Of a stretch of DNA of 64,000 nt, positions 1 to 54,654 are shown piece by piece; the stretch's first letter is position 1, and each line of letters starts with the position of its first letter. The position numbers and the translations under genes were made by a program. The DNA lies in assembly GCA_030390025.1 (NCBI GenBank), contig CM059432.1:39186001-39250000 (forward strand), given 5' to 3'. A model generated the notes under the pieces. That model was given only the letters and a program-made list of their open reading frames with translations. It was not told the DNA's origin and did not search any database. The stretch comes from Squalus acanthias. Lineage: Eukaryota.

Positions 1-1352
1 ATTTACTCAGAGTCACACAGTTGTCCAGTAAACTGGGTATTATTATAAACAGACATCCTTCCTTTACACTTTGACAAATAAGGTGAATAATAAAACACAA
101 CATTTGCTGTTCTTCTGTTGAAAACCATGGGAGCATGAGAGGGCAATAAATTTCACTGCTGCCCTGTGTTTACTGCCCTATTGTGCTCCCATTCTTTTAA
201 TAGTCGGGGAAAAAAACTGTTGGCAGAATGCCTTTGTGACAAAATCACGCAAAGGAGAAACAGTTCACCTAAAACACACGAACAAAATTAAAATTTAACA
301 GGTACATGTTGAAAAGCAGCATGTACAAAGAGATTTAGGAAAATGAGGCAGTATTATAACACATCATTAAATGGTATCAACTTTTCAGATCTCAAACATT
401 TTTCAGAAAGGACTTCATTGTAGTTGGTCTTAAAGCCTAAAACCTATTCTTGGTCCAAAAAGTCAATGTTATATCATCTATTAGTGCAATTGGTTTCAGA
501 AAACTGTATATATGCAAAACTCTCTCTATTTAATTATTCCCTCCATGTTGCATTTTTCACCCTACACACAGATCACTTGTATTACAAATTCAGTCACAGC
601 TAATCTTGGATCATCAAGAAGAGGCTGGTCACACTTTGTTAGCAAGTACAAGAAGCAAGGCTCTTCAGTTATAGGCTAATCTAGGGTTATCTTTACTGCG
701 TTTGTCTATAAATCTGATCTCTGTTGTGATACAGATGTTTGTTTTTCTATTGTATTTATGCCCCATTATTATTGAACATTAATTTAGCCTGCACCACATT
801 AAATTAAATCACAAAGATATCTTGTGCCTTTCTTTGGGGTGAGAGAAGGGAACTCAAATGCACCAAATTTTTGTAATAGGGTTTTTTTGCAGTAAAACAC
901 TACCAGAGACTGATGGATTTGGTTTTCATATTACTTCTGCACAAGGTTTTGATTTATGTTTGTATTTTGTAGCATGCATTTGTCTCGTTAGCCCTCAAGT
1001 GATCTGTGGAAGAGTCTAGCTCTATCTATTGCCTTGGTGATTCAGGAAGTTCTCCCCACTGACCCTTCACTATAATTCATTTTTTGGAGATCTTATGTGT
1101 AGATGCTGAACATTTTAAATTTCAACAGAAAAGGACTATCAACCCAAATGGTCATCTTCACATATGGTTGTCAGGTACTAAAGAATTGTTGAATTTTTAT
1201 GAAGTTCAAGATTTCTGAGATTTTCCATAATGGAATTACTGTAGATGTAATTTTCTGACTTCACGCTTCCGGCAGGGATATTCACCTAACATGAGCGCAC
1301 ATCAGAAATGATGGGGGTGCTGCACATAATTTTCCAAATAAACAGATACAAG

Positions 1353-2174
1353 GGGCAGAATTTTCATTGACCCGTGGAGGCGGGTTTGGAGGCATGTGGG
1401 GTGGGAAAATAGCAGATTCGGGGGTCCCAAACCCATCCCGCCCCCAACCCGCCTCCATGCCAGTTTCACAGGAGGCGGGTACCTGACCTGTGCTGGGACC
1501 CGCCTCCCCGAGGCGGGAAGGGGATTAGTGCCAATAAACTGCCTGTTAACAGGTAGTTAACAGGCAGTTTTTTGCCTAATCCCTATTTTTGGCCCTGAAG
1601 TGTGGGCTTCCCGACAGGTCCGAACCACGCCGATTTAGCGAGGCGGACCGTCGGTCTGGAGGGGTCGAGATGTCCGGTGTGCAGGTGAGTGATGGGTGCA
1701 TGAGTGCAGAGGTAAGTGTGTTTGGTGTGTGTAAAGTGTTTTAAGAACTTGTACTTACCTTAACTTTGTCCTGCAGGCTAAGGTGTCGGGAGTCCCTCAC
1801 ATCCATGGCACAGAAAGCAGAATGGTCGCGGAGCTGTCAAAAGCTACAGTCTCTGCTTTCTGTGCTGGATTGATTTCTAACTCAGTCTAAGTACAGGGAC
1901 TCACGTTAGAAATCATATTGTCAGGGTTTGACAGCTTCACAGAGTTGTCAAACGCTGAAATTTCATCTGTCAAAAGCTCTTGACAGATGAAATTTCAATG
2001 ACGTCACCTGTAGCCAAGGGACCCTTGATTGGCCTGCTAAGCCTGCTAGGCGGGCTTAACAAGGTCAATCAAGGGAAAATACAGTGGGTTGGCCACAAGT
2101 CGATGGAGGCGGGACTACAACCCAAAAAGTGGGAGTCCCGCCTCCATCACGTCCCAATTGACAAAATCCAGCCC
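1353..2174 (+). mobile_element. Non-autonomous PIF/Harbinger element (MITE-like, family M)
   Basis: Ends GGGCAGAATTTT...AAAATCCAGCCC (imperfect TIR); 3-bp flanks AAG/ATG; colinear with the reverse copy at 34129-34969 and related to 41283-42121. Confidence 0.85.
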
Positions 2175-3924
2175 ATGAAGTCAGAAAATTACCCTTATAT
2201 ACCTTAGTGACTTAACAGAAACAAGTATTTGAGAGAATGACAGAAGCAAATGGAAAGGCTGATTGAGTAGTGCAGTGGTATAGCGCAGGTTTTTCAATTC
2301 AGGGGGGTTGGTATTAGTCCTCATTCCACCTGTTTTATGGGCATAAAACAGGCGCATTGAGGTCTAATGTCAGGGACCACCATCCTGTGCACAAAGGACC
2401 GCAAAAAGACTTCTGACCTGATGTTGGGCTGGCCTATTTTTCAGGCGTCCCTGGCAGCCACCTAAAACTGGTGTTAGGCCCCTTACATAAGCAATGAGGG
2501 GCCCAATGCCTGTTTTCGGCCCCCTTGCCAAAATTAGAGTGCGATTGCGGGAACAGGAACCAGGCCTGCTCCACTGAGGATTCTTCAGTGACCAAAGCAG
2601 CGGCTGTCAACAAAAGAAATCCCGTCTGTTACGTACAGCGGTACCAACATCTGCAGAGAGCAGGCGCAGGTAATAATACGGGTTGTAGGTGGCCCCACAA
2701 TGAAAGTATCAAGTGTTAATTGATCCCATTGGGCCTGCTGCAAATAGTAACCAAAGATAAATCCAGATCAATGTAAAACAATATACATCGTGGGATTAGG
2801 AAGCTTGCTAAACTAATCTAGCAATTGATCAATTCAAATTGCTGTGACTCAAGACACTTTTGCGTCTTTTGAATATGTCAATATTTATACAAATGTGTGT
2901 CCAATCTAATTGCAAATCCCAATTTATAAAAGCTTCAGAGGAGAAGAAGAGTTACAGATTGTCAAAGTTCAAAGCACTTTTATTCTGAGGGGGCGATTCT
3001 CATCTCACTACCACCCCATTTACACCTAAAAATGGAACGGTAAAGAGATGAAAGTCATGTGTGAAAGTGAGATACTCGGCTCCTTAGCTCAAGTTTCTTC
3101 AGCAGTGTGAATTACTGGTCATTATTCAATTAATTTTCAAATAGTATTGAAACCATACATAAATTATTTTTTTTAGAAATTTGTAAACCACCATTCATTT
3201 TTCAATTATCCTTTGCCAGTTTCCTTTCAATTTAGAGTGGTTCCTTCTTCGCAAGAAATGCAAATAGTAAAATTTTATTTCAGAAAATTATTTACCAAAC
3301 AGACAAGCTGGTCCTTAATTGTCTGTACAGTAAATTAGTTGTGCAATTATGATTAACAGTTAAGTGCTAAACCTGTTTCTTTACAATTTTTACAAGCTCC
3401 AGCTTTCACTTAAGTACACAGGCAGGTATATAACAAAGTCTGCCAAGTTGAAAGTGATAAAAGACACAAAATGCAAAACAAACACAGGCAGAGACTCTCC
3501 TGTTTTATGAATGCTATTACATCTGCTTCTCCCAGAGACCTGATTTTCTTCATTTCCTTATATGTTAGCATTTTATACTTGTAACTGTAAACTGCAACAC
3601 TGTAAGAATGCTCCATAAGTAGCAACACTGAAACTCTGGTCTCTCAAGCTCGAGTTCAAACTCTAATCTTGATTTACATTTATACATCCTTACATTTGAG
3701 GAGGTGATTTTTACAGTTAAAGGAAATAAACTTTTGATTGGAGGAAGAGAAACCGCTCAAGCTCCTCTCCCTTTTAATAACAGGCCAATCATCAAGCAAT
3801 ATTGATAAATTCATAGAGATATTCACAGGCTGCACTGGCAGAGGTGAAAACCCGAAAGGATGCTAACAGGGCCAAGACTAAGGATGAATAGAAAATAGTA
3901 AATATGGTCAATGATTACATCCTC

Positions 3925-5827: not shown

Positions 5828-7215
5828 GATGTATTAGACGTAATATATTTGGATTTCCAAAAAGCCTTCGATAAGATACTGCATAGTAGGTCAGGCAGCA
5901 TCTGTGAAGAGAGAAACAGAGTCAACGTTTCAGGTCGATGACCTTTCGTCATCGACCTGAAACGTTAACTCTGTTTCTCTCTTCACAGATGCTGCCTGAC
6001 CTTCTGAGTGTCTCCATCATTTTCTGTTTTTATTTCCGATTTCCAGCATCTGCAGTATTTTCTTTTTGTACTGCATAGTAGACTCATGTCTAAGGTCAGA
6101 ACATGTGGAGTCAAGGGACAAGTAGCAGAATGGATAGCAAGCTGGCTACAAAACAGAACACAGAGAGTAGGGGGTAAAGGTAGTTGCTCAGATTGGCAAA
6201 AGGTAGGAAGTGATGTTCCACAAGGATCTGTGCTGGGGCCACTGTTGTTCACCATTTACATAAACAATTTGGACTCTGGAATCGGAAGTACAATTTCAAA
6301 ATTTGCAGATGACACCATATTGGTGGGTGTAGTAAATACAGAGGAGGACTGCGACAAAATACAGACATTAATAAACTTGCAGAATGGGCGTGTAATTGGC
6401 AAATGAACTTCAATATAGATAAGTGTGAGGTGGTACATTTTAGTAGGAAGAATAAGGAGGCCACATACTCCTTGGAAAATGTCTAAATGGGGTAGAGGAA
6501 CAGAGGACTCTGGGGGCACAGATACACAAATCACTAAAAGTAGTGATGCTGGTTAATAAGGCCATAAAAAAGCAAACAAAGCATTAGGGGTCCTTTCTAG
6601 AGGGATAGCATAATAAGGCAGAGAAGTTATGTTAAACTTGCATAGTACCTTGGTTAGACTACACAGAGTACTGTGAACAGTTCTAGTCGCCATATTATAA
6701 AAAGGATATAGAGGTACTGGAGAAAGTGCAAAAAGATTTACGAGAATGATACCAGAACTGAGAGGCTTACCTATCAGGGAATGCTGAGCAGGCTAGAGCT
6801 CTTTTCACTGGAGAAGAGAGACTCAGGGATGACCTGCTAGAGGTCTTTAAGATTATGAAAGGGTTTGATAGGGTAGACATAAAGAAGAGGTTTCCACTTG
6901 TAGGCGAGACCAGAACTAGGGGTCGTAAATATAAGATAGTCACTAATAAATTCAATAGGGAATTCGGGAGAAACTTCTTTATCCAGAGAGTGATTAGAAA
7001 GTAGAACTCGCTACCACAAGGAGTAGTTGAGGCAACTAGTATAAATGCATTTAAAGGGAAGCTAGATAAGCACATGAGGGAGAAAGGAATAGAAGGATAT
7101 GTTGATGGGGTTAGATGAAGAAGGGTGGGAGGAGGCTGGTGTGGAGCATAAACACCGGCATGGACTGGTTAGGCTGAGTGGCCTGTTTCTGTGCTGTCAA
7201 TACTTTGTATGTTTT
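5828..7215 (+). mobile_element. 5'-truncated CR1 LINE (RT domain to 3' UTR), disrupted
   Basis: YLDFQKAFDK, VPQGSVLGPLLFTIYIN and KFADDT motifs; stops and frameshifts; CR1 3' end near 7200. Confidence 0.9.
5889..6068. mobile_element. Short Penelope-like terminal-repeat insertion, palindromic
   Basis: GGTCAGGCAGCATCTGTG...CACAGATGCTGCCTGACC inverted arms; 12-bp TSD TACTGCATAGTA at 5877-5888 and 6069-6080. Confidence 0.7.
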
Positions 7216-8856
7216 GTTTCTGCTTGTCACAGGATCCATAAGTGAACAAGCAAATGCCACAAAATTATCATTAATATTAACTTGGTCAAAATTTGCTGGC
7301 ACCTTCCACTCACAAAATGCCCTTAAAAATGTCATTGTTATGAATGCTTTTGCTTATAAATGCACCTTTATTATAATCACAATTGCATTACTTTTAGTTT
7401 TAAAATAGCATCGTAGTTCAAAAGATCCTCCATTTATATAACATAAGAACATAAGAAATAAGAGCAGGAGTAGGCCATACGGCCCGTTGCGCCTGCTCCG
7501 CCATTCAATAAGATCATGGCTGATCATCGACCTCAACTCCACTTTCCTGCCCAATCTCCATATCCCTTGATTCCCCTAAAGTCCAAAAATCTATCTATCT
7601 CAGCCTTGAATATACTCAAAGACTCAGCAGTCACAGCCCTCTGGGGCAGAGAATTCCAAAGATTCACAACCCTCTGAGTGAAGAAATTCCTCCTCATCTC
7701 ATTCTTAAATGGCCTACCTCTTATCCTGAGACTATGCCCCCTAGTTCTAGACACTCTAGCCAGGGGAAACAACCTCTCAGCATCTACCCTGTCAATCCCC
7801 TTTAGAATCTTGTATGTTTCAATGAGATCACCTCTCATTCTTCTAAACTCCAGAGAGTATAGGCCCATTCTACACAATCTCTCATCATAGGACTGCCCTC
7901 TCATCCCAGGAATCAATCTAGTGAACCTTCGTTGCACCGCCTCTAAGGTAAGTATATCCTTCCTTAGATAAGGAGACCAAAACTGTGCACGGTACTCCAG
8001 GTGTGGTCTCACCAAGGCCCTGTACAATTGTAGCAAGACTTCCTTACTCTTATACTCCAACCCCCTTGCAATAAAGACCAACATGCCATTTGCCTTCCTT
8101 ATTGCTTGCTGTACCTGCATGCTAGCTTTCTGTGTTTCTTGCACGAGGACACCCAAATCTCTCTGAACACCAACATTTGAAAGTTTCTCACCATTTAAAA
8201 AATATTCTGTTTTTTTATTCTTCCTACCAAAGTGAATAACCTCACATTTCCCTACATTATACTCCATCTGCCACCTTACTGCCCACTCACTTAGTCTATC
8301 TATATCCCTTTGCAGACTCTTTGGGCAGAATTTTCATTGACCCGTGGAGGTGGGTTTGGAGGCGTGTGGGGGGTTAAAATTGCGAAAAACTGGCGGGTGG
8401 GCACAAGCCTGCCTCCATCCCGCTGCCACGCAATTTTCATTAAATCGTGTCTGCTGGTCCCGACTCTGTCCCGCCTCCAAGAGGCGGGATAGGCCGTTAA
8501 GGCCCTTAACAAACAGTAAATTGCCTCTATAATGCCATTTTGAAAGGCCTTTGTGATTTTAACCCTTTTTCCACGTGAAGCACGCCTGTTCTGAACCACG
8601 AATGTGAAACCTGGCGGTAGCACATTTGGATTGCTGACTATCAGCTGCAGCTCAACCATTATGAAATAGGAGATGTGATCAGCCATCATTTGCAGTTGGC
8701 AGGACTTTGTTGTCTGAGGTCTGGGGGATCTTTTATATGGCATAACCACAGCTGTGGAAGTTTGGAGCCTGACACCCATCTCCAGTGTGACCTCCTGGGA
8801 AACCCCTCTTGCCACCTTGATTGAGCGCTTCCTCAACTGAGGCATATACGAGAAGC

Positions 8857-9078
8857 ATGGGAACCATTTATTTCCTTTCCTCCTGGACATCAGATTCGGA
8901 CGAAGACCAGCTGTGGCAGCAGCAGAACCATGAACAACAGCACCACCAGCAGCAGCAGCATCAACAGGAGTGCCAAGCTGCTCCTCACCCACCTGAAGCT
9001 GCACAGGCCAGAAGGCGCCAGCACGCGACCACATTGCTGCCCGAGATGCAAGGGACGCACTTGACCAGATTTGCTTAG
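8857..9078 (+). pseudogene. Harbinger transposase with the DDE core deleted
   Basis: [16 protein letters not shown]...[11 protein letters not shown] is nearly identical to the N-terminus in ORF 51818-53164, then jumps to HIAARDARDAL/TRFA* (C-terminus). Confidence 0.85.
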
Positions 9079-9394
9079 TCTGCACAATCAAACACTTTTG
9101 CCTCGCACCTTCTTATCAGACCATCGACAATGGCCAGGAACCTGTGGATTCCTATCACTCTGACAACCATACTGACAATTGCAAGTCATCCTAAGCCCTC
9201 AATGTGGAAGTCCCATTTGCGAAATGACAGATGCCACAACTTCAGCAGTTTGCCAGCAGAATTTTTAATCACACCAAGCAAGTGCTGGCATTTCAAGATT
9301 AAACACAACATTACACCCAAGTGACTACCCTTGTGACTACTTGTGCATTATTTTTCTTTTACGCGTGCTCCTACGTGGTGCTTCCCCTGTGGCT

Positions 9395-11289
9395 TCAGCA
9401 GATGTGGAGGCCCCCTTGCTCACTTTCTTGCTGCTCCTGCCTCGACACCTTTGGCAGGCATCCTCTGGGGTTGCGAGCCTGTGAGGGCTCGGCAACAGTC
9501 TGCTGCTCCTGCGGCTGTGCAGGGGTTGAAACGCCCATCTCAGTTGGGTGAGGACTCTGGTGGGGCTCTGACCGAGGGCTTTGCAGTGGCTTGGTCGTGT
9601 GAGCGCTTGGAGAGGAGCCCCCACTTCCTTGTTGTCTGCCACCAACATCCCTCTCATGGGTCAGCCCCACCTCAGCTCTTGCAAGTGGATTGAGAGCACC
9701 ATGCTGCACATCAGGGGGGCCATGGGGACCCGTATCTGCACTGGAAGTCCTACTCAGAAGGACTTCCATGAAGGTCTGGTTTCTATGTTCAATAGATAAC
9801 CATCGCTCCTCAAGAGATGCCAGTCTATTCTGAACAATGACCATGTTTTCTACACTCTGGTGACTTATCTCCTCCATAGCCATAGCCATCCTCTCCTCTA
9901 CTCTAGCCATCCTTTCCACAGAGGTTGCCATCCTTTCCGTGGTGATGTGTTCATGTGCCAATGACTCCATAAAGGCTCTGCTCATGTTCGCTATGGACTC
10001 CTCCATTCGCTCCACACTCGGAGTGACCCTGGAGACAAAACCTGCCAGAGACTCCTGCATCTGTTCCTGGAGTTCTAGCACCGCTGATCTTATGGATGGA
10101 CCCAGAGGCAGAGGGTCGACATGCAGCTGAGCCGAGCTAGGAGAGTCCTACGCCCTCCGACTAGGACTCTCCACTGCTGTCCCTGTCTCCACTATCTGCT
10201 GATGCTCACTTGTGAGCTGTGATACACCAGGTGACAACACTACTCTATCTCGCGGTGTGAGTGTCTGCGCTGGTGCTGGGTGCGCTGAATTCTGCTGACG
10301 CGGCGCCCTCAGAGGTTGCAGCTTCCTCTGACGAGTGGTGAGGCTCATGCTCTTCCTCCTGGACGGTGGGGACGGCTGCTTGCGATGGTCCTGGGGGGGA
10401 GTAAAGGAAAGAGTCAGAGATGTGAGTCCAAGGTTACATGCACATTGCATATTGGAGGTGATCATAAGTTAGTCTGCTGGAGCATCAGAATCATTATCAG
10501 TGACTCATGCAATGTCAATGAGAGAGATGATAAACTATTCTGTCACCAGCTTGCTCTGATGCACCCGTCTGTCCGTCCCCCACTTGCGCATCCTCCTCCA
10601 CTCCCATGATCTCCAGGACCGCCTCCTCCCAGGTGGTGAGCTGGGCTACTGAGGCTGGCCCTCCTCCTGTCCTCGCTCTTTCCCTCTTATTGTGAGCTCT
10701 CTTTTCCTGCAATGAGGGAGACAAGTGGAGTTTGAGTGAGAATGAAGGAGTGAGTGTAGAGAATCTATATCATTGATGCTTAGAAGGATACAAATTCGGA
10801 GTGAGGTGGCAAGACCATGGGCCCTCCCTGTGTGTTGTAAGTTGTTTTCATAGCATCACAGCAATACGGAGTGTGAGGGCTGCATAGTTGAATAGTTAGG
10901 TGAATGTGACCATACAGAGAGAGGGAATGGGTAAGGGTGTAGTGATGTCAGTGTCAAGTGGGATGTGGAGGAAGAGGTTGTCAAAGCTGAGTGCTGGTGA
11001 GGAGAGGCAATGGGGATCAGAATGAGGGTGATGGGAAATTCATACTCACTTTTCCAGTGCGCAGCAGGTCATGAAACCTCTTCCTGCACTGAAGTCAGGT
11101 TCTGCGGGTTATGGACAACGAGGTGACCTCCTCTGCCACCTGGATCCACACAGCCTTGGTTTGATGGGAAGGCTTCTTCCTCCCTGAAGAAGGGAAGAGC
11201 ACCTCCTTATTAGCTCTGGCTCCCTCAATTAAAGCTTGCAGGGCGACGTCATCAAATCGAGGTGCAGACCTAGGTCTCTGGCTGGCCAT
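9395..11289 (-). pseudogene. Harbinger Myb/SANT-like (trihelix) DNA-binding gene, 3 exons (11289-11050, 10706-10547, 10390-ca.9395)
   Basis: MASQRPRSAPRFDDVALQALIEG...W..VA...RT*LQCRKRFHDL motif; GT-AG introns; exon 2 EKRAHNKRERARTGGG; coiled-coil-like tail; stop at 11095 plus later frameshift/stop. Confidence 0.85.
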
Positions 11290-12299
11290 TCTTCCTGCAG
11301 GTGCCTCTAACATGCAAAGGCAGAAGCTTGGCAGTCTGCAGAGGAAGCAAGGCTTGTTGCAGACCTTAAATGCTGCAGCAAAGATGACGTCATCGGAAGC
11401 GACTTTCAGACTGGAAAAACTCACTGGCCATGGGTTCCCACACGTTGGCACTCAATTGGCCAATTATGTTAAAATCGCATCAATCTCCCACATCGATTTA
11501 GATTCGGGTGGCTAACACAAAATGCGGATTACACAACCCCAGCCCGCCCCTGATTCAAAATCCAGTCCTTTGTGTTCTCCTCACAGCTTACTGTCCCACC
11601 TGCCTTTGTATCATCAGCAAACTTGGATACATTACACTCTGTCCCTTCATCGAGGTCATCAATATAGATTGTAAATAGTGGAGGCCCCAACATTGATCCT
11701 TGCGGCACCCCACTAGTTACAGCTTGCCAACCTGAAAAAGATTCATTTATCCCTACTCTCTGTTTTCTGTCCATTAATCAATCCTCTATCCATGCTACTA
11801 TATTACCCCCAACCCCATGAGCCCTAATCTTGTGTAATAACCTTTTATGTGGCACCTTATCGAATGCCTTTTGGAAATCCAAATATACTACATCCACTGG
11901 TTCCCCTTTATTTACCCTGCTAGTTACATCCTCAAAAAACTCTAATAAATTTGTCAAATACGATTTCCCTTTCATAAAACCATGTTGACTCTGCCTAATC
12001 ATGTTATGCTTTTCTAAGTGCCCTGATACCACTTCCTTAACAATGGATTTCAGCATTTTCCCGACAACTGATGTCAGGCTAACCGACCTGTAGATCCCTG
12101 TTTTCTCTCTCTCTCTCCTTTCTTGAATAGCGGTGTTACATTTGCAACCTTCCAATCCGCTGCGACCATTCTAGAATCTAGGGAATTTTGGAAGATCAAA
12201 ACCAATGCATCCACTATCTCTTCAGCCACCTCTTTTAGAACCCGAGGATGTAGGCCGTCAGGTCCAGGGGATTTGTCGGCTTTTACATTTTACAACCAA

Positions 12300-26531: not shown

Positions 26532-26539
26532 AGCTACTG

Positions 26540-29843: not shown

Positions 29844-30840
<997 letters not shown>

Positions 30841-31445: not shown

Positions 31446-31454
31446 TTAACTGAC

Positions 31455-32245: not shown

Positions 32246-34049
32246 AGCTATGACAAATATTATCTCTGTGTGACCTGTTTTAACCCCTTACCTGCTGATT
32301 CTAGCCATAAATAGTCCAAATCAAAAATTGCATACAGACAAAAGGTATGTTTCAATCACACTCACCTTTCATTTTTATGGTAATGAGCTTAAATTTCTGC
32401 CTCCTAGTCACCAACTCATGGATAAATGGAAATAATGGGGGAGAAATTTGTTTAAGCCAGTAAATTTGCCGATGTCACCGGCAACTGGAGTTAACGGCTG
32501 CTAAAAATGGCTGCAACGCTAATGGAGCAAAATTTGTCTGGGGGGATGGAGATTGTTGGCGCAGCATTTACCTGCCGTGCAATGCCATCCTGGTGGCGTT
32601 ACTGGAGGCATCCGAGGTGAAGTTCCTGTCCAAGTGCGGCGTTGAAGCTTCGCACAACCTCTGGAAGCGAGGCTGTGGAGCTCGCAAGGAATTGTGGGCA
32701 ATGAAAAAGTCTGAGAATTAAAGGGGCCATACACATTGAAGCAATACAAATTAAAATTAAGTGAAACAATGCAGTTTTCAGCCGTTTCTGCCTTTTAAAA
32801 AATATTTAACATTAAAAAGAAGTCCCAAATGTGAATATTCAGTTCTTAAAGCTGAATTCCCTTCCTAACCTCAAAAAATGGGAAAAAATGCCTCAGCACT
32901 AACACAAATGGCTCAGCAAGCCAGGGAAGGGGCACCCAGGGTCTTGCACACAGCACTCCAGCTTTGTGCAGGGGATCACTGCTGTAAAAGAGGTCCTCTA
33001 CCCACAGGAGCCAGGAGGCCCTCCAGAAAGAACGATGTGGGACCACATCACCGAGGTCGTCACTGCCAACAGTCTCGCCCCTACCACCTGGCTCAGTGCC
33101 CAAAGAAGATTCATGACCTCAGACCACTGGTCGAGGTCAGTGAATGCAACTTCAAAAGCCGTCTCCTACCAACTGCACCAGTAGCCTCACACACTGCTCA
33201 CTGCATGACCCCCACACCCAACCACTCACCTACCAACAATCTGCACCAATCACGAGGCACATCTCTCATTTCTAGCCTCACCTCACCTCCTTGGAGGAGA
33301 CGGTGCAGGCCATTCTTGGGAGGAGCATGGCCGAGCCCTTGGCCAGCGGCGGGGCTGAAAGGATACAAGGTATCCTCATACGTTATCCTCCGACTGGCAT
33401 GCACCTCATGCTTTTCCGCCCTCCCCTCACCACAACTCCACCCTTGTGCCTTCCTCATTTCACATACCCAAGAAAAGCAGCCTGCCCAGCCAGTGGGTGG
33501 CCAAGAAGAAGGAGAGGAGAGTGAAGAAGAACAAGAAGAAGATGATTGATTTGACACTCAGCCACTAGCGCCTCAATGTCAACCAGCAAGGTCATTTACA
33601 GTGTCCCCCACTGAAAGTCAGCAGCCTTCCACCAGCCATGCTGCAGCCAATGAGGTAGCACTGTGTGACATCAGTAGGATAGGCAAAGGCGCACACAAGA
33701 CAGTCACTAAGAGAATGCATAAGGGCGATGAGTTGATTTCTTGATGTCACATTGGATGGATAGATGTATAAAGTTGGACTGGAAAGTTTGCTTTGTGGTG
33801 GCTTTTATTTCAGCATCGTGCCCAAGAGGACGCTGTGATGGTCAGTAACAGATGGAAGGTAAAGTGTGGGACTAATGTTGAAAGGGGAATTGGGGTTGCA
33901 GTCACTGGACCGCAGGCGGATGATTCCATCTCGGATATACCGGCCATAAAGGCGCTGTCTGGGATGCATCCTTCCATCTGATTCCTCCTCTTCGGCTTCC
34001 TCCTCTGCGGCTTCCTCCTCTTCTGTGTCTTCCTCTTCCCTCTGAAAGC

Positions 34050-35040
34050 GGATGCTGTAAATGTGAAATGACAGCATAAAATGCTGGAAATACTCAGCTG
34101 GTCCGGCAGCATCTTGACCTGAGACATAGGGCTGGATTTTGATACTGGGGACGTGATGGAGGTGGGACTCCCACTTTTTGGGTTGTAGTCCCGCCTCCAT
34201 CGACTTGTGGCCAACCCACTGTATTTTCACTTGATTGACCTTGTTGAGCCCGCCCAGCGGGCTCAGCAGGCCAATTAAGGGCCACCGGCAACAGGTGACG
34301 TCACAGATTGACATTTCATCTGTCAAGAGCTTTTGACAGATAAATATCAGCGTTTGACAGCTCCTTGAAGCTGTCAAACACTGACAATCTGTCTTCTAAC
34401 TTGAGTCCTTCCTCTCAGGCTGAGTTAGAAATCAGTCCAGCACAGAAACAGAGGCTGCAGCTTTTGACAGCTCAACGGCCATTCTGTTTTCTATGCCGGT
34501 GAGATTTCTGACTCCCGAGCCCTGAAGGGCTGACACCTGCAGGAGGAAGTTAAGGTAAGTAAAACTTTTTTCCACACTTTACACTTACCTTACACACTTA
34601 CCTCTGCACACATGCACTCATCACTCACCTGTCCACCGGACATATCGACCCCTCCAACCCCTGCAGACCCACGGTCCGCCTCGCTAACTTGGCATGGTTC
34701 AGACCTGTCGGGAAGCCCACATTCCACACATAAAAATAGGGATTAGGCAAAAAACTGCCTGTTAACTACCTGTTAACATGCAGTTTATTGCCACTAATCC
34801 CCTTCCCGCCTTGGGGAGGCGGGTCCCCGCACAAGTCGGGGACCCGCCTCCAGCGAAACTGGCATGGAGGCGGGTTGGGGGCGGGATGGGTTCGGGACCC
34901 CCGAATCTGCAACTTTAACCCCCCACATGCCTCCAAACCCGCCTCCACGGGTCAATGAAAATTCTGCCCATAAACTCTGTGTTTCTCTCCACAGACGTTG
35001 AGTGACCTGCTGAGTATTTGCAGCATGTTCTGTCTTCTCA
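34050..35040. mobile_element. Penelope-like palindromic repeat, split by a Harbinger MITE
   Basis: ATGCTGGAAATACTCAGC...GCAGCATC on the left; AACTCTGTGTTTCTCTCCACAGAC...GCTGAGTATTT on the right. Confidence 0.65.
34129..34969 (-). mobile_element. Non-autonomous Harbinger (family M)
   Basis: Reverse complement of 1353-2174; TSD ATA. Confidence 0.92.
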
Positions 35041-35529
35041 AAGGCCTTCATTTACCATGCAAGCCCTTGCAAGCATCAAGCAGCACCCCATCACACTTAA
35101 AAAACTTTTCACATCTATTGCAGCAAGTCACCACTTCAATAAAATCAAAAAAAAACAGTCCAAATCCTTAAATTCAAACTTATCTGAATGATGTGTGTGT
35201 CCCTTTAAGAGGCACAGTCATCGTCACTGTCAGCCTGCTTGCATGCCAGGTTGCATGCTTAGGATCCAGCACTGAATTCAGCGCTAGGGTTGACGTTTGC
35301 GCTTGTGACGTTAAGTCAGCATTGCACGCCGATTTATGTCACAGCGCCACCATTTTGTTTGGGATGGTACTGCCAGTTACCGGCAGTGCAAAGGTAAGGA
35401 CGAAAATGGCGGCCGCCGCGGGACCCGCCAGCAGCTGCCTAAAGAGTGTCAGCCATCGTTTTAGCGCCATTTAATGGCGCTACGGAGTGGCGCTAAGGCC
35501 ACGAATTTCTAGCACAATGCTTCCCTATT

Positions 35530-39093: not shown

Positions 39094-39227
39094 TGGCGGA
39101 ACTTTCAACTTCGCTGGAGGTGTAAAACAGGCAGCAGCGGATTGACCCAAGAGTTCAATGGAAAGGAAAATTGCTCCAATTCACCGCCGCCATGTTTGTG
39201 GCCCAGCTGAAGATGAAAGTCCCGCCC
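39094..39227. mobile_element. 134-bp Harbinger-type MITE
   Basis: TIR TGGCGGAACTTTCA / TGAAAGTCCCGCCC; TSD CAT. Confidence 0.65.
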
Positions 39228-40370: not shown

Positions 40371-41263
40371 GGGGGAAAAATTCAGTTGGTTGCGCCTCCC
40401 GTTAGCGCCTTAAGAGGGCGCTAATGGGGCACAAATCATCTAGCGCCCAGGCGCAGCGATGTTTGTGCCGCTCGCGAAATTAACTAGACACTTTGCGGCG
40501 GTGCTAAACACTACCGCCACGATCTCCTACGCCGGCAGATTGTGACATCAGTCGAGTGCGCAACGCCCCGGTATCGCCCCGGAGCGGATATTGAGTGGCG
40601 CCCCCTGCCTTACCACCTGACGCTAGCAATGACATGTTGAGGGAAGCGTTTTGCAGTCATGAAGGGACTGGGAGAGTGCCATTTAAAGGCGACCGCTTCC
40701 TGCCTTTTATTGTTGGTGCCATTTTTGAAACACGCATTCTGAGAGAGAGGGAGAGAGTCATCTGGAGAGATTCAACACTGTGTGAAGGAGTTTTTGGTAC
40801 TGAGCAGCACTTTGCAGGTTCATTTTGATTTGCCATTCCTTGTATCGATTTAGAAGGGTCTGTGGGGGCTGCACTCTGAGCTCTTTCCCTGGTACTCTCC
40901 ATTGTTCTTTCCAGCAGATTTGATGTGCAGGTCTCTCCAGGCCACGATTCAAGGCTGCAATGCGCAGGATGTGGATGGAAAGCAAGATCAACCATCTCCT
41001 TTAAGAACTGGCCCGTGCCATTGTGTGGGTGTTCCGTTGCTGACTGACATCACATGAGCTTCGCCAGCGCTCTGAGGTAGCGCCTCGCTCCTCGGCCTTT
41101 GCACCTTAAGACAGGTGTGAAGCGCCTGATTTAGCGCTCCAATCACCTCCCGGGGCGATAAAAGTCAAGTTTGCAGTCGGTGGCGATAACTAGCGCCAGG
41201 CGCTAATCTTTGCACCCGGCCGATAATTGTGCCCCAAATGGGGTGATACTGAATTTCTCCCCC
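40371..41263. mobile_element. Non-autonomous Harbinger (GC-rich family)
   Basis: 16-bp TIR GGGGGA(A/G)AAATTCAGT; TSD ATA; Myb-like start MESTRERA on minus. Confidence 0.9.
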
Positions 41264-41282
41264 ATAGAGTCATAGAGTGATA

Positions 41283-42121
41283 GGGTTGGATTTTCCAAGC
41301 CCTGAGGAGGCGGGCATGGAGGCGGGACAGCCAGTAAATTCAGAGAAAGTGGGGGCAAAGGCACCCCCATCCCGCCTCCGTGCCCTTTTGCCAGGAGGCG
41401 GGAAGATGTGCAGCTTCGGGTCCCATCTCCTGGTGACGGGAAAGGAATTTAATCCTTTTAACTGCCTGTTAACAGGTAGTTAACAGGCAGAAAAAAGGAT
41501 TAGTGCCATTTTACCTTCACAGGTGAAGGCTTCCCGACCTTGGAGAACCCCGCCGGGTTGGAGGAGACGTGGAGGAGGTCTGCGGGGGTCGGAGGCACCT
41601 GGAAGTAAGGTGTAGAGGTGAGTGATGGGTGCAAGTGTGGAGTGGTAACTATGCAAGGTGAGTGATAAGTTTTAAAAAGTGTTCACTCACCTTGTTTTCT
41701 TCCTACAGCCTTCAGCCGTGGTGGATCAGGAGAGGCGACATCCTCCTTGTCAATTTCACAGACTGGCTGTTGGAACCTCCGAACCAACAGCCATGTGAAA
41801 TTTACAAATTTGAAAGGTTTGATAAGTCCTGAACACAAGGTCTCATCAAACTAAAGAGAATGTCAGTGTTTGACAGCTTCACAGAGCTGTCAAACGCTGA
41901 CATTTCTTCTTTCAAGAAATCTTGACAGATAGCACGTCTGACGTTGACATGCTCTGTCAGTGACTTCCTCCCTAATTGGCCTGCTGAGCCTGCAGGGTGG
42001 GCTTAACAAGCTCAATCAGGGGAAAATCCCTCTGGTTGGTCAGGCGAGGATGGAGGCGGGACATTGACATGACAAGCAGCAGTCCCTCATCCAACTCGCC
42101 TCCATTCACAAAATCCAGCTC
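41283..42121 (+). mobile_element. Non-autonomous Harbinger (family M relative)
   Basis: TIR GGGTTGGATTTT / AAAATCCAGCTC; TSD ATA; shares internal palindromes with 1353-2174. Confidence 0.88.
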
Positions 42122-43210: not shown

Positions 43211-44617
43211 TGTAAAGGAATAGCCATATTTAGAAAAATACACCACCCTATGAATAGAATTCTGACTTTATTAAAACATGACAGACTGGGTTTAAAAATC
43301 TAAAAGCCTCAACAACACAAAGCTGTAAACACCATACAGGATTTTGAGATAAAGATCAGTTGTTGACACTGAAACAAAAGCTTCATTGAAACAGAGGGTT
43401 GGAGGTTCCTAGAAGTCTGAAGTTTTGGAAAGAGCACAATGGAATCCCCAGTTAAGGTGTCATAAACCAACACTTTGAAATGAATCACATAAATTAAAGA
43501 AACATATGCCTTCATAAATATGACATCAAATGAAAGACAGGAGACATAATTCTTGGCACAACCAATTGAAGTAGCTAGGAAAACAATCACGTACTCGGTT
43601 GAAGTGTTTATAATTTACATGTTGTAAAAAGATACAAACAGAAGACTTTCATAAATATGACATCAATAGATGCACCAAGCAATCACATTGTTTATGTGTT
43701 AAACTTGGAGCAAATAGGAGACACGAAGTCTGTTTAAAACCAGCTGAGGTGATTTAAGAATTGAATAGAAGACCTTCGTAAGAATGGCATCAAATAGATA
43801 CATCTGTTATAACCGTTTTTATGATAAGTTTTGAACACCTAAAGTAGAGACACAAGTCTGCAAGCTAACAACTGAACTGACAGTAAGAATAGAAAGAAGT
43901 CAACAGAAATATAACTAGAGATAATTAGCTTACATCAGCAGCACACTTCAAGGGATATGCCACTGAAAATAGGGTTTAAATATAGGACTTTCAAATAGGA
44001 AGACAGAATTCGCTGGAAGGGGCAAGCGATTCTCAGCTTCAGAGACAGGCTCTGAAAGCCTACAACTCTTTGAGTCTCGGGTAATCAAAGGTATTTTGAT
44101 TTTGGTGGATATCCTGGATTAAGAATAAGTAGAAATGTAAAAATGTAACGAAGTTAAGATTTGAGAATAAGGATCTCTGAGAATAAGAATTGTAAGCTAT
44201 TTGTTTTTAGAACTGTTAAAGTTGCGATTGAATCACCAACTGTTAACTGCAAGTCGGTTCTTCAATAAATCTATATATTTTTAGAATTATCTCACATAAT
44301 ACTTCTGTATCAAACTCGCGAACTCAATCTCTGTACACTCTTTGGTGAGGAGTTGCAGAATTCATGGGGAATTTTCCGGACCCTCATAATATCCAGAAGG
44401 TTACAGTCTAGTTAAACTTATTAAAAGTGCTATCTGGAGGACGGTAACATCTTCAAGTCATTCCTTTCTTTTAGGGAGAGATAGTCTGGACCTTTAGACC
44501 CAATTAAGCATCTTGTAGGATTCGGCTATCTCTAACTTTAGTTGAAGGTGAATGTCTGGGGAATACGCCTGACCCGGGGTGGCCCGAAAAGGGCTAGGAC
44601 TAGTAATTATCCCTTCA
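43211..44617 (+). mobile_element. Solo LTR, 1407 bp
   Basis: TG...CA termini; TSD GATG; TATA-like site near 43975; AATAAA at 44264. Confidence 0.88.
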
Positions 44618-45421
44618 GATGTTGGAAATGCAATATATATTTTAAGAATGGAATAATTTCTCAGCCAGGTGACCAACGTCCAGAAATGGAGGCATTGAGT
44701 GGATATGTACTGTAGATGAAATTGCTGGTAACTCAGGTGAAAGTTATTGGATTGGTAGAAGACCAGTATGACCAAAATATTAGGGATAATTTTCTAATGT
44801 TGCACTCCCAGTGGGAGTTAATATTGGAACTTTGGGCTAGTTTTTCACTTTCAGTGGTGGCAGCAAACTGGGGTTAGCGATCAATGGAATGGAAACCATG
44901 GCAGAGTTTGGACAAGTTGAAGTTTGTGGAGGATGGAAGACAACAGGAGAGAATTAGAGTAATCAATTCTGAAGGTGAGAAAGTCCCATCATTTCAGGTA
45001 GAATGTCCCAGAACTAGCAAGGCGTGTAGGGAGTCATTAGAATGTCTCCCAGCCCAATTTTACACTCCTGTCTGCTGGAGTAACATCAGGGAGCTGGTGT
45101 AACTTCAGCATAAAATTCCAGGCTCAAGTGATTTGCAGCTCTAGTTTGTTACCAATTGAACCTAATAATAAAAGCCACAGTTTAAATGATTCCTTCTGTG
45201 GGGGAGAGGAAATGAAATCTTGACTTCAGTCCTGTTGCATCAGAGTTACTGTAGTTATTTGAAACTATGCCATATAATTGCACACGTATCTAGCAGAGGC
45301 AACCCATTCATGAGGATAAGGTGATCAGTCATTTGATAAGGTCCTGGCTGTGTGGTAGAAGATCAACAACTGAGAACATGTGCTGCTGTAACAGTGATCT
45401 GAAGAGGAATATAAAGATAAT

Positions 45422-45580
45422 GTGGATGAAATTGGTCTTCGCTCATTGCGCAAAACGGGCAATAGCGAAACAGCAGCTCACTTTACATCCAATGGAAAAG
45501 AAAAGCAGGTAGGGTGTAAAACGGGGTGCCGATTGGTTATTTCCCATTTTGTCCTATTGCTGAAGACCAATTTCATCACC
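45422..45580. mobile_element. Short MITE
   Basis: Perfect 16-bp inverted repeat GATGAAATTGGTCTTC at 45425-45440 and 45562-45577. Confidence 0.65.
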
Positions 45581-46016
45581 AGTGATGGATACAGTGATCT
45601 TGTACAAAGGAATAGGGACTCACATTCAACTTTGGCGGGGCGGAAAACTGATGGTAACGGATTGGCTGCCTGTTATACACCCCCGATTTTCCTTTCCATT
45701 GAAGATTACCCTCATAGTTTCTCTTCAATTTTATTTAATACATTTTATTTCCAAACAAACAACAAAAACAGCTGAAATAGGTGGACATTTTAATTCACTC
45801 TGAGGGGGTAAGCACTGTGGAGCTGGATTTCCTTGCCATTTACGCCGCACATACCATACTGGAAAAGCAATGGCAACCTTTTTGTGAGAAAAGTCAGATG
45901 AAAGCCATTTTCACCAACTCCCACGTTTAAACGGCATCCCCTGAGTTTCCTCCTATTTCTGCAGCTCTCCCACGGTCCACCTGTGGAGTCACCACTGGCC
46001 GCATTTGAATATGTCA

Positions 46017-47410
46017 TGAAGGGATAATTACTAGTCCTAGCCTTTTTCGGGCCACCCCGGATCAGGCGTATTCCCCAAACGTTCACCTTCAACTAAAGTT
46101 AGAGATAGCCGAATCCTAGAAGATGCTTAATTGGGTCTAAAGGTTCAGACTATCTCTCCCTAAAGGAAAGGAATGACTTGAAGATGTTATCGTCCTCCAG
46201 ATAGCACTTTTAATAAGTTTAACTAGACTGTAACCTTCCGGATATTATGAGGGTCTGGAAAACTCCCCCAGAATTCTGCAACTCCTCACCAAAGAGTGTA
46301 CAGAGATTGAGTTCGCGAGTACTATGTGAGACCATTTAAAAAATATATAGATTTATTAAAGAACCGACATGTAGTTAACAGTTGGTGATTCAGTCGCAAC
46401 ATTAACAGTTCTAAAAACAAATAGCTTACAATTCTTATTCTCAGAGATCCTTATTCACAAATCTTAACTTTGTTACATTTTTACATTTCTACTTATTCTT
46501 AATCCAGGATATCCACCAAAATCAAATACCTTTGATTACCTGAGACTCAAAGAGTTATAGGCTTTCAGAGCCTGTCTCTGAAGCTGAGAATCGCTTGCCC
46601 CTTCCAGCGAATTCTGTCTTCCTATTTGAAAGTCCTATATTTTATACCCTTTTTTCAGTGGTATATCCTTTGAAGTGTGCTGCTGATGTAAGCTAATTAT
46701 CGCTAGTTATATTTCTGTTGACTTCTTTCTATTCTTACTGTCAGTTCAGCTGTTAGCTTGCAGACTTGTGTCTCTACCTTTAGGTGTTCAAAACTTATCA
46801 TAAAAAGCGGTTATAACAGATGTATCTATTTGATGCCATTCTTACGAAGGTCTTCTAGTCAATTCTTAAATCACCTCAGCTGGTTGTATTACAGACTTCG
46901 TGTCTCCTACGTGTTCCAAGTTCAACACAAACACAATGTGATTGCTTGGTGCATCTATTGATGTCATATTTATGAAGTCTTCTGTTTGTATCTTTTACAG
47001 CATGTAAATTAAAATCACTTCAACCAGATGCACCATTGTCCCCCTAGCCACCTCAGTTGGTTGTACCACATAATCGTGACTCCTGTTTCATTTGATATCA
47101 TATTTACGAAGGCATATGTTTCTTTAATTTATGTGTTTCATTTCAAAGTGATGGTTCAAAACAATTTAACTGGGTATTCTTATTGTGTTCTTCCGAAAGC
47201 TCAGACTTTCTGGAAGCTCCAATCTGCTGCTTCAGTGGGGCTATTGTTTTAGTGTCAACAACTGATTCTTATCTCAAAAGCCTGTATGGTGTTTACAACT
47301 TTGTGTCGTTGAGGCTTTTAGATTTTTAAACCCAGTCTGTCATGTTTTAATAAAGTCAGAATTCTGTTCATAGGATGGTGTATCTTTCTGAATATGGCTA
47401 TTCCTTTACA
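46017..47410 (-). mobile_element. Solo LTR, 1394 bp, same family as 43211-44617
   Basis: TG...CA termini; TSD GTCA; on minus, TATAAAA at 46640-46646 and AATAAA at 46352-46357. Confidence 0.88.
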
Positions 47411-49170: not shown

Positions 49171-49222
49171 AAGGGTAAGGCTAGCAGGTAAGGAGTGTGT
49201 GCCAAGTGGCATAAGAGAGTTG

Positions 49223-49350
49223 GCGAAGGGTCATCGACCTGAAACGTTAACTCTGTTTCTCTCTCCACAGATGCTGCCTGACCTGTCGAGTATTTCCAGC
49301 ATTTTCTGTTTTTATTTCAGATTTCCAGCATCCGCAGTATTTTGCTTTTG
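49223..49350 (+). mobile_element. Short Penelope-like terminal-repeat insertion
   Basis: GAAGGGTCATCGACCTGAAACGTTAAC...; 11-bp TSD TAAGAGAGTTG at 49212-49222 and 49351-49361. Confidence 0.7.
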
Positions 49351-49493
49351 TAAGAGAGTTGAGGAACTTGAGCCCATTCAAAACTCTGCTGCCGGTATCC
49401 TAACTCGTACGAAGTCCCATTTACCCATCATCCCCGTGCTTGCTGATTTACTTTGTCTGCCGGTCCGGCAACGCCTCGATTTTAAAATTCTCA

Positions 49494-49594
49494 AATAGAA
49501 ACAGAAAATGCTGGAAATACTCAGCAGGTCAGGCAGCATCTATGGAGAGAGAAACAGAGTTAACGTTTCAGGTTGATGACCTTTCGTCAGAACA
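49494..49594 (-). mobile_element. Short Penelope-like insertion inside L2
   Basis: 13-bp TSD TTTAAAATTCTCA at 49481-49493 and 49595-49607. Confidence 0.75.
49559..49593 (-). ncRNA. Minimal type I hammerhead ribozyme motif
   Basis: GUU-CUGACGA-A-AGGU(CAUCA)ACCU-GAAAC-GUU-AAC: conserved core, stem II and palindromic stem III. Confidence 0.6.
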
Positions 49595-51817: not shown

Positions 51818-53164
51818 TTATAAAAGTTTGGTGTAACTTCCTTGCTTTTGTACTCTATGGGCTCGATTTTGCCAGGCCCGAGGAGGCGGGATTGGAGGCG
51901 TGTGAGGTGTTAAAATCGCAAAAACTGGCGGGCAGGCCCGATCCCACCTCCATCCCACCGCCGAGCAATTTTCCCACATGCGAGTTTTCTGACCCCGTCT
52001 CCATCCCGCCTCCAAGATGTGATGAGCCACTTGTTCCTCCGGCATCTGCAAGCCACGATGCTGTGACATGTTGTGAAGTGCACAGCAAACCACGATGATT
52101 CTGGAGACCCTGGCTGCTGAGTACTGCAGGGCTCCACCTGATCTATCCAGGCATCTGAACCGCATCTTCAGCAAGCTGATGGTTTGCTCGATTATGGATC
52201 TGGTGGAAATGTGGCTCGAGTTGTAGCGCTCCTCAGCTTCGTTGGATGGGCTCCTCAATGGCGTCATTAGCCACATCTTCAGGGGATAGCCCTTGTCTCC
52301 AAGTAGCCATCCGTTAAGTTGGTCTGGCGGACTGAAGAGCGGAGGCACACTAGACTGGCGCAGGATGAAGGAGTCATGGCAACTGCCAGGGTACTTGGCA
52401 CAAACATGCAAAATTTCCTTCTTGTGGTCACACACCAGCTGTACGTTGAGGGAGTGGAAGCCCTTGCGGTTGACAAAAATACCTGGATTGTGATGGGGTA
52501 CCTTAAGGGCCACATGTGTGCAGTCAACGATGCCCTGCACCCTTGGAAAGCCTGCCAGATTGTCAAACCCAACCGCACACACAGTTACACTGGCTTGATC
52601 CTTGGAGAAATGGATGTGATTGTGCACGATGGCAAAGAGGGCATCGGTTACCTGCGTGATGCAAGTGTGTGCGGCCGCCTGGGAGATGCCGCTGATGTCT
52701 GCTGCTGATCCCTGGAATGAGCCTGAAGCAAAAATGTTGAGTGCGGTGGTGACTTTGATGGCCACTGGTAAGGGGTGTCCACCTGCTCCTCTGGGCTCCA
52801 GGTCTTGCTGCAGCATTGCGCAGATGTCACCCACTACCTCTCGCGAAAGTCTGAGCCTCCTTTGGCACTGCTGCTCAGTCATGTTGAGGTAGCTGATCCT
52901 TTGTCTGTAGACCCTGTTTGGGGGGTATCTGCTGCGCCGACGGGCTTCCATGCGCTGGCGCCTTCTAGCCTGTGCAGCTTCAGGTGGGTGAGCAGCAGCT
53001 TGGCGCTCCTGTTGTTGCTCCTGCAGTTGGTGCTGCTGTTGCTCATGGTTCTGCTGCTGCCGCGGCTGTTCTTCGTCCGAATCTGATGTCCAGGAGGAAA
53101 GGAAATAAATGGTTCCCATTCTTCTGGTATATACCTCAGCAGACTTTGGCCTGCTGCTGGACAT
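51818..53164 (-). CDS. Harbinger (HARBI1-like, DDE_Tnp_4) transposase ORF; native ATG probably at 53119; native C-terminus lost
   Basis: Uninterrupted 448 codons with [60 protein letters not shown] and CCALHN; reads through the left arm into CR1. Confidence 0.9.
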
Positions 53165-53443
53165 ATTGGCTGGAGGAATCTATCACAGCAAAGGGCATAA
53201 GGTTTGCAGTCTGCAGAAGAAGCAAGGCTGCTTGCAGGCCTTAAATCCAGCAGCATTGATGACGTCATCAGAGGCGACTTTCAGGATGGAAAGACTAATT
53301 GGGCCAGGGGTTCCACACGCTGGAAATCAATTGCCCAATTAGGGGAAAATCGCATATTTTTCCCACATCAAATTGGAGTCGGGTGGCTAACACAAAAAGC
53401 GGCTGACACGCCCCCAGCCCGCCCCAATGGCAAAATCGAGCCC
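51859..53443 (-). mobile_element. Compact PIF/Harbinger element B (1585 bp)
   Basis: Perfect 16-bp TIR GGGCTCGATTTTGCCA; TSD TAT. Confidence 0.95.
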
Positions 53444-54654
53444 TATGCCTCTGTTTACAAAGCCAAGGATCCCGTATGCTTAACAGCCTTCTCAACTTGT
53501 CCTTCCACCTTCTATTATTTGTGTGTGTGCACCCCCAGGTCTCTCTTTAAAAAGGCTTTAAAATTGTACCATTTAGTTTATATTGCCTCTCCTTATTATT
53601 CCGACCAAAATGCATCACCTCACACTACTCTGTGTTAAATTGTATCAGCCATGTGTCTACCCATTTTACCAGTCTGTCTATGTCCTCCTGAAGTCTGTTA
53701 CTATCCTCCTCACTGTTTACTAGATTTCTGCAAACTTTGAAATTTTGCCCTGTATACCCAAATCCAGGTCATTAATATATATCGAAAAGAAGCAGGAAGA
53801 TTCATGCAGAGGCTTAAAAAACAATTCATACAATCCAAGTCAAAGGAAATTATGGTAGAAAGAAGTGTGTTAATTGATGAGAAACTGTCATGCCACTCCA
53901 CTCATGAACGGAGGTGAAGTACCAACTACAGTCCTTTTCAGTCAGAACTGAGAATCACTATGTCACATATGAGTAGAACAAAACAGTGTGATCTCATTCA
54001 GAAGAAAGATAAATTCAAAGAAAAAATTATGGAATATACTCATAAGAGATGGAATGTTCAAAAAGTCTGAGATCAAGGAAGGGAACAATGCATTGGACAA
54101 GGCTGTAAGGAAAGAAAATTGTTCTTTCTATGCACACCAGAAATGTATACTGTAACATACAAGGGGTCCGCTGTGACTGCATAAAGAGATGACCATAGAG
54201 TCACAATAAAGTTTACCATTAGAAGAAAATTAAGCCTAGTGTGATTTTCTTTTTTGTCAGCTGGGCAACTGACACGCAAGGAAACACAGTACCATGTGCA
54301 AAAAACTCCAAACCAAGATACTTAGAGATCTTCACAGCTTCTATTTGCAGGATATAGAAGCCGATTCTCTCCCAGTAGGGAACCTGCTTACTCTAATGAG
54401 GATAGATATTAGTTGGTCTTTAGATGGTTCCACCTATTGGAGGTACGGAGATTCAGCAGTAACTGTGTCCCTGTAATGCAGCCATGATAGTACTGAACTC
54501 TGGTAATTCCTTCCATGAGCTGTCTTGCCAAGCTTCAGTTTCCTCCTCAGGGTACATGATGGGCATTTGCCTTTAGCATGGAGGAAGGACCTACAGTGAA
54601 TAGCTCGCAATTTACTAGACATCTAATTTGAGTGTCGCATACCAGTCTTACTCT

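Follow-up and report, generated by a model that had tools for sequence, protein, structure and literature searches.

A 64,000-nucleotide stretch of the Squalus acanthias genome (contig CM059432.1, positions 39,186,001 to 39,250,000; G000:C8:39186001-39250000 in our own numbering), referred to here as a whole as the window, holds a series of PIF/Harbinger DNA transposons, and a first-pass annotation made from the letters alone had proposed that several families of them share a palindromic 13-bp target site. Here we show that these elements, which lie in a 3.7-Gb genome rich in CR1 repeats, have a two-gene anatomy, a target-site duplication (TSD) of 3 bp, a symmetric half-site and an occupancy that depends on single bases of the target. 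We hold with considerable confidence that PIF/Harbinger elements of at least two transposase clades insert at one degenerate palindrome, which is likely read directly by the transposase complex and was likely inherited, together with that of zebrafish Harbinger3_DR, from a common ancestor. The working consensus is ARASWY-WWW-RWSTYT, 15 letters with a duplicated 3-bp centre.

An extended palindromic target preference

A genome-wide flank logo had been named beforehand as the test of the proposed site. The set on which it was built comprises 275 element ends (147 of group AB and 128 of group C, two groups described below) found by homology of the element interior alone and with the window excluded; 24 ends whose terminal inverted repeat (TIR) matched at fewer than 11 of 12 positions, the locus of the window itself (L031) and the near-duplicate locus L059 were dropped before the logo was drawn. 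With frequencies given for AB and C in turn, the half-site reads A at -9 (48 and 62%), G at -8 (52 and 48%, with A at 28 and 39%), A at -7 (88 and 84%), S at -6 (81 and 62%, stronger in AB), W at -5 (87 and 79%) and C at -4 (73 and 62%, with T at 20 and 25%), followed by an A/T-rich TSD in which TAT, ATA, TTT and AAA predominate. The A at -7, which is the T at +4 of the other half, is the most constrained base and the Y at -4 the second most constrained. Information totals about 8.5 bits in AB and 7.6 bits in C; positions -12 to -18 hold at most 0.07 bits each, and an A/T bias at -10 and -11 is seen in the group C logo. Left and right ends share one logo, and the motif is therefore palindromic. 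The logo thus carries information beyond the 3-bp TSD rather than being confined to it.

Complete insertion sites tell the same story with less precision than a strict 13-mer would require. Identical 3-bp TSDs were found at 84 of 114 automatically paired ends, with 15 more differing by one base; the pairing is partly wrong (15 of the 114 have two or three TSD mismatches), and only the 84 identical pairs were scored. Measured against the ten flanking positions of GASWC/GWSTC, these sites average 7.7, with 56 reaching 8, as 0.28% of random positions do, and 12 reaching 10; the TSD is WWW in 61 and CWG in 2. The eight window sites from which the consensus had been read are real, matching it at 8, 9, 9, 9, 9, 10, 9 and 8 positions in their order along the window. 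Their mean of 8.9 exceeds the independent 7.7, as expected of a consensus that, as the annotation itself had warned, was drawn from its own sites.

A scoring matrix trained on 188 half-sites from the search loci only was applied to unselected DNA totalling 800 kb (four blocks of 200 kb, on contigs C2, C5, C12 and C20), in which 31 paired insertions with at most one TSD mismatch could be scored. All 31 lie above 0, a score exceeded by 5% of positions, and occupancy by rising score class is 0/758,916, 4/34,806, 9/5,361, 10/811, 5/78 and 3/3. Trained in this way on other loci, the matrix also places all nine window sites, including that of an older element, within the top 0.12% of background positions. 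Exact counts across the genome agree: GASWC stands at -8 to -4 of 1,946 of 8,854 exact group C left ends (22.0%, against a background of 0.29%, a 76-fold excess), and GASWC-WWW followed by the TIR occurs at 28,021 places as against 115 for the reversed control. Empty places spelling GASWC-WWW-GWSTC number 9,988 and those of a control with a four-W spacer 4,219, both lists being dominated by repeats and the reversed controls being of other dinucleotide make-up; a spacer scan of the 800 kb, too small a sample, gave 2 perfect empty sites where 6.7 were expected. The preference is strong but degenerate, at about 8 bits, and not a strict 13-mer: of the original proposal, the sharing of an extended palindromic preference by several families, including two transposase clades, stands, and the fixed 13-bp site is an overstatement.

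In a repeat-rich genome such a logo could in principle arise from a few insertions that were copied with CR1, duplicated or selectively retained. It is true that homologous repeat sites group 67 of the 275 flanks into 15 clusters and that one near-duplicate locus had to be removed. However, the same CR1 site holds different families, of different lengths (577-4,302 bp) and orientations and each with its own TSD, and the logo is unchanged across 190 singleton, non-tail flanks and persists in unselected DNA scored with an independently trained matrix. This explanation is largely refuted, and we consider it extremely improbable.

CR1 repeats as natural target variants

Identical CR1 positions have been struck by different families in both orientations, and thousands of homologous copies supply one- and two-base variants of the target. 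The samples described here are the first matches on contig C1 and not random draws from the genome. A 17-letter anchor at a site in the CR1 body has 4,717 matches; among the first 100, 23 are interrupted at one bond (hand count). The far side could be resolved for 22 of these, and 20 carry T at +4; the empty copies divide into 35 with this T and 42 without it. Among the matches listed, occupancy is accordingly 36% with T at +4 and 4.5% without (p=1.6e-4), so that a single T-to-C change within the same repeat lowers it about 8-fold. The GAGCC subfamily of this site is as diverged as the GAGTC subfamily (0.911 against 0.907), and in 4 of the 6 filled copies closest to the GAGCC subfamily the site reads GAGTC.

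These data bear on whether letters are read at all. Shape-driven target choice has been described for Sleeping Beauty (PMC3016246), and a motif of about 8 bits with an A/T-rich centre is degenerate enough to suggest that DNA shape or bendability is preferred through indirect read-out, with the letters a proxy. We think this unlikely as an account of the half-site, in which one base dominates (A at -7, 84-88%) and its exchange at +4 in one and the same repeat has the effect just described; for the central WWW it is compatible with direct reading of the flanks.

The CR1 tail provides a second series. Where the 3' end of one CR1 family runs into GACTC-TAT, 42 of the first 100 of 4,642 matches are filled and 3 more may be (hand count), and 6 empties continue with GACTC. 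Of the 42 filled tails, 20 were fetched, and in the 17 that could be resolved T stands at +4 without exception; an exact GACTC follows in 14, and 3 hold a second element 8 bp further on. Occupancy of sampled two-unit GACTC tails in this family is thus about 80-88%. In a contrasting CR1 family with a ATTCTATG tail (6,990 matches), the 100 listed include no clearly filled tail and one unsure case, together with 15 GATTC-TAT-GATTC empties (p=5e-9 against the GACTC tails). The family is no younger than the other (0.903 against 0.926), and a body site carries Harbingers in 2 of its 20 fetched copies. Occupancy climbs steeply with motif score, and it falls about 8-fold or more on one- or two-base changes in homologous CR1 sites.

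The loading of CR1 tails also invites the reverse interpretation, adaptive homing, in which CR1, and chiefly its (ATAGAGTC)n tail, would serve as a safe haven to which the target has been tuned by a centre shifted from CWG to ATA or TAT. Repeat-homing DNA transposons such as Dada show insertion essentially confined to one host repeat. Here, unlike in those systems, 208 of the 275 flanks are singletons and just 41 (in unselected DNA, 11 of 87) are tail-like; leaving these out does not alter the logo. Although the high occupancy of the two-unit tails, the stacking of elements 8 bp apart, the predominance of TAT and ATA among TSDs and the fact that the ATAGAGTC tail accounts for 22 of 50 empty perfect sites among the matches listed would all suit homing, a second abundant CR1 family has a ATTCTATG tail that is nearly unused and zebrafish Harbinger3_DR already shows the flank motif, and we regard homing as quite unlikely. 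A combined history strikes us as no less doubtful: the half-site would have been kept across clades older than the shark-ray split while the centre was re-tuned to ATA/TAT to home on ATAGAGTC tails (about 85% filled), CR1 being pushed to other tail units in an arms race, and the elements would form a seventh PHIS TSD class. On our preferred reading, that of a degenerate palindrome common to the clades, the loading of CR1 tails and bodies would be a by-product of repeats that happen to spell the motif.

Several results weigh against this reading or limit it. Of the 84 paired sites, 28 score below 8 of 10, 4 of the 31 unselected insertions lie under 4 bits, and 2 of the 22 resolved filled body sites lack T at +4. 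A perfect body site is just 36% filled where a perfect tail is filled to about 80-88%, which means that context beyond the 13-mer, or age, matters. A further group of small elements, group D, has a weak motif (about 2.8 of 5, against 1.7, in 25 hand-scored ends). Finally, the insertions that provide all of this evidence are old (pairwise identity 0.90-0.94), with the consequence that later mutation blurs the logo and some retention bias may persist.

A mechanism can be outlined by analogy. In Harbinger3_DR and mPing, as described in PMC2836001 and PMC9392472, the Myb protein binds the element ends and imports the transposase, transposition needs both proteins, and the target preference is set by one of them or by the two together. 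The Myb protein of the elements studied here would likewise bind the ends and import the transposase, both being needed; a symmetric complex containing the transposase would then contact two 6-bp half-sites and cleave the A/T-rich centre with a stagger of 3 bp.

Some further observations were made in these repeats. Head-to-tail stacks of different families, one octamer plus TSD apart, stand in CR1 tails at L035, L070, L086, L266, L267 and L270 and, in the window, around 41264-41282. A body hot spot spelling GAGGC-ATA-GAGTA and variants recurs with both AB and C elements (L003, L022, L030, L109, L276, L277 and the window element at 51859), and another, GACAC-AAA-GTATT and variants, recurs in the 800-kb blocks and at L084. 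Among the 100 listed CR1 tails, 8 run on into GACTA-TGAC, where the first octamer is followed by a 6-letter unit that may reflect tail slippage or a footprint.

Element families and the copies in the window

Both ends were recovered at 18 of 20 refetched AB loci, mostly 4.0-4.6 kb apart. In the canonical element of about 4.2 kb, a transposase frame of about 425 codons lies near the left end and faces a convergent Myb gene that is apparently spliced. Group C elements are laid out in the same way, and their transposase is 57-60% identical to that of AB. The transposase matches DDE_Tnp_4 (PF13359; E 4e-38 in AB and 7e-39 in C) and its alignment shows conserved DCTH, GDKG and IIEQ motifs, while the opposite strand encodes Myb_DNA-bind_5 (PF13873; E 6e-10 and 7e-11 in AB, 6e-9 in C). 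A DDE transposase, a separate Myb/SANT-like gene, short TIRs with a 3-bp TSD and an extended palindromic preference, traits of the PIF/Harbinger superfamily, are thus present. A search of solved structures with the transposase core returned no matches at E up to 1.

The closest named relatives of the transposases are elasmobranch proteins annotated 'putative nuclease HARBI1' and 50-63% identical, from Chiloscyllium, Carcharodon, Heterodontus, Pristiophorus, Heptranchias, Scyliorhinus, Mustelus, Mobula, Narcine and Pristis. In a quick tree with SH-aLRT support only, AB and C fall into two separate supported clades of the elasmobranch radiation, C with ray proteins, which suggests that their split is old. 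The 112 element ends in the 800 kb of unselected DNA extrapolate, roughly, to 260,000 elements, and a first look for the transposase gave 114,384 candidates genome-wide. The 133 best matches outside the window are 90-95% identical, many with open frames of more than 420 codons. Judged by their pairwise identities (0.90-0.94, best pair 0.974), the copies sampled appear to record past and not current activity. The group D elements (L231-L250 among others) are old and about 80-320 bp long where resolved, with TSDs that often end in T (AAT, ACT, GAT, GCT).

The open transposase frame of the window, which the annotation had put forward as a candidate enzyme, is not supported in that role. The frame (51818..53164, minus strand) is a chimera that joins the Myb start codons to a DDE_Tnp_4 domain without its last ~45 residues and exits through the TIR into flanking CR1. 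It belongs to a rearranged 1,585-bp group AB element (51859..53443, plus strand; site TACTC-TAT-GCCTC in a CR1 hot spot) made up of the left end, an inverted transposase segment (52017-53139) and the right end, with the Myb gene deleted. The segment is inverted relative to all 29 other loci compared, and the fusion at 53139-53164 has joined the Myb start codons in frame to the transposase, which now stands behind the element's Myb end. Only one of 40 scored matches, the window copy itself, spans this junction. The frame is therefore a one-off rearranged copy and not the canonical enzyme, and canonical two-gene elements stand elsewhere in the genome, among them L080 of group AB (G000:C3:44332980-44337186) and a group C copy at G000:C20:30084578-30088744, each with changes of its own. 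The element at 8323 was also considered as the carrier of the inversion and was rejected, being collinear with canonical copies where 51859 is rearranged.

The group AB elements of the window are those at 1353, 8323, 29844, 34129, 41283 and 51859, which have common ends or interiors, GGGCTGGATTTT-like TIRs and 66-92% DNA identity within their shared parts. The contention that the window elements differ in TIRs and interiors is therefore overstated: of the eight, only those of group C (40371) and group D (39094) carry different TIRs, and two of the six AB elements, 1353 and 34129, are the same miniature element at 86% identity. TSDs are identical at seven of the eight elements, the exception being 1353 (AAG/ATG). 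This non-autonomous element of 822 bp (1353..2174, plus strand) has the site GATAC-A(A/T)G-AAGTC, and its left 28-mer has 1,257 exact copies across the genome. The element at 8323..11568 (plus strand; GACTC-TTT-GTGTT) has lost most of its transposase (canonical 684-1699) and keeps a Myb gene on the minus strand, exon 1 of which is 10978-11289; it lies in a CR1 reverse-transcriptase hot spot, and the identical CR1 site is filled in 23 of the 100 copies listed. A non-autonomous element with an internal (GA)n microsatellite occupies 29844..30840 (plus strand; CACAC-ATT-GACTC). The older, group-C-like Harbinger at 32437..35515 (plus strand), with a Myb remnant at 32960-33223, matches the consensus poorly (GAAAT-AAT-GCTTC, 6 of 10), the annotation having recorded that just the outer GA...TC is kept, and is host to the non-autonomous element at 34129..34969 (minus strand; GAGAC-ATA-AACTC).

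The small group D element at 39094..39227 (134 bp; TIR GGGCGGRACTTTCA; site GAGTC-CAT-GTGTG) is spanned without a gap by orthologous contigs of related sequencing runs, a few percent diverged. Aligned to 33800-42500, four sequencing runs were swamped by contigs of repeats, and no orthologous empty site could be resolved there. Two Harbingers are stacked in one CR1 tail: a non-autonomous group C element of 893 bp with TIR GGGGGARAAATT (40371..41263, plus strand), at the perfect site GAGTC-ATA-GAGTC in the octamer tail, and a non-autonomous AB element (41283..42121, plus strand; GAGTG-ATA-GAGTC), separated by a leftover (ATAGAGTC)n tail (41264..41282) and followed by the CR1 3' end from 42122. 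Such stacking would be explained by the new site that an array of octamers offers 8 bp away each time one is filled. Another old Harbinger end, absent from the annotation, lies at 24832-26400, with flank GATAC-CAA, TIR GGGGGAAATTTC and a Myb remnant at 25171-25350; its right end was not found.

The window also contains inverted repeats. One, at 43211-47410, has arms of about 1.4 kb at 91% identity around a 1.4-kb core, and its arm recurs in L268 and L151, so that it is a repetitive element of long-TIR or foldback-like type. A common repeat that is not Harbinger forms short inverted pairs at 5885-6005 (58-nt arms 5 nt apart) and 49221-49589 (104-nt arms).

Relation to known PIF/Harbinger systems

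Extended target choice is a known trait of the PIF/Harbinger superfamily, covering 9 bp in plant elements and 15 bp in those of vertebrates, and which of the two proteins reads the target is left open in the account of PMC2836001. The present genome offers two transposase clades that use one half-site with measurable differences (S at -6, the A/T bias at -10 and -11); with a centre unlike that of Harbinger3_DR and thousands of one- or two-base target variants in CR1, swap and specificity experiments are easily designed. Over some 10^5 insertions, a preference of about 8 bits is enough to bring the best sites close to saturation and to account for look-alikes of homing in tails and satellites: among the best motif copies within CR1, one third to about four fifths of the sampled places are already filled. 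As a tool, such a system would offer a preference and not a precise site-specific integrase.

The presence of Harbingers in a shark is by itself no longer news. PHIS elements were stated to be absent from sharks (PMC4482050) and Harbingers from the elephant shark (PMC9179366), and in the grey reef shark, according to a 2025 report, Tourist/Harbinger elements are the most common DNA transposons (PMC12498223). The literature searched, to which Repbase and Dfam entries and subscription papers did not belong, contained no description of shark Harbinger target sites. A bird protein labelled HARBI1 is just 40-45% identical to the transposases described here. Plant PIF and mPing-Ping-Pong, as presented in PMC2836001, resemble the elements here in having two proteins, a 3-bp TSD and an extended preference; theirs covers 9 bp around a TTA/TAA centre, whereas the motif here is longer and has other letters.

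PHIS groups are defined by TSD (PMC4482050), and on this basis the elements fit none of the classes compared. The NuwaI anatomy is present (a TIR starting GGG, DDE and Myb_DNA-bind_5 genes, about 4-4.5 kb), but CAG or CTG, the CWG of NuwaI, makes up 2 of 84 TSDs. NuwaII, as set out in PMC4482050, shares with them a TSD preceded by C and followed by G (62-73% here), TIRs that begin with GG, two genes and transposases commonly of about 410-440 amino acids. Its C|TNA|G target, however, is not that of the elements here: the flanking C and G occur in most sites, but TAA, TTA and TCA make up about 14 of 147 AB and 19 of 128 C TSDs, so that TNA is a minority. The best Myb domain here is Myb_DNA-bind_5 and not Myb_DNA-bind_4, and the NuwaII passages of PMC4482050 carry no description of the extended ARASW flank seen here. 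Nor do the TSDs follow the TWA of PIF/Harbinger in the narrow sense (Han et al., 2015; PMC4482050).

The closest counterpart is Harbinger3_DR, also named NuwaI-2_DRer, an element of 4,204 bp with a 12-bp TIR and a CWG TSD (Han et al., 2015; PMC4482050), whose target consensus is given as AAACACCWGGTCTTT (PMC3016246). The elements here agree with it in length (about 4.2 kb), in their 12-bp TIR and in the pairing of DDE_Tnp_4 with Myb_DNA-bind_5, and its flanks AAACAC/GTCTTT, a 15-bp palindrome, fit the matrix derived here, scoring 11.5 of 13.9 flank bits, a value reached by 2.5 per million background positions. They differ, as far as Harbinger3_DR is described in these sources, in the TSD (WWW here against CWG), in position -8, where G is as common as A or commoner, in the size of the transposase (about 425 against 343 amino acids) and in copy number (roughly 260,000 by extrapolation against 293). 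The zebrafish preference had been thought to be of a different sequence and the shark elements to have a recognition site of their own; this part of the original proposal is not supported, since the Harbinger3_DR consensus matches the proposed one at 8 of 10 positions, as many as two of the sites from which it was drawn, and the TSD alone differs. Common ancestry of the two motifs is likely, with convergence a possible alternative. As CWG, TNA and TWA all fail, we file the elements not as members of NuwaI but as PIF/Harbinger elements that work like Harbinger3_DR, and their flank motif, compared letter by letter, is no new site but essentially that of Harbinger3_DR with a WWW centre.

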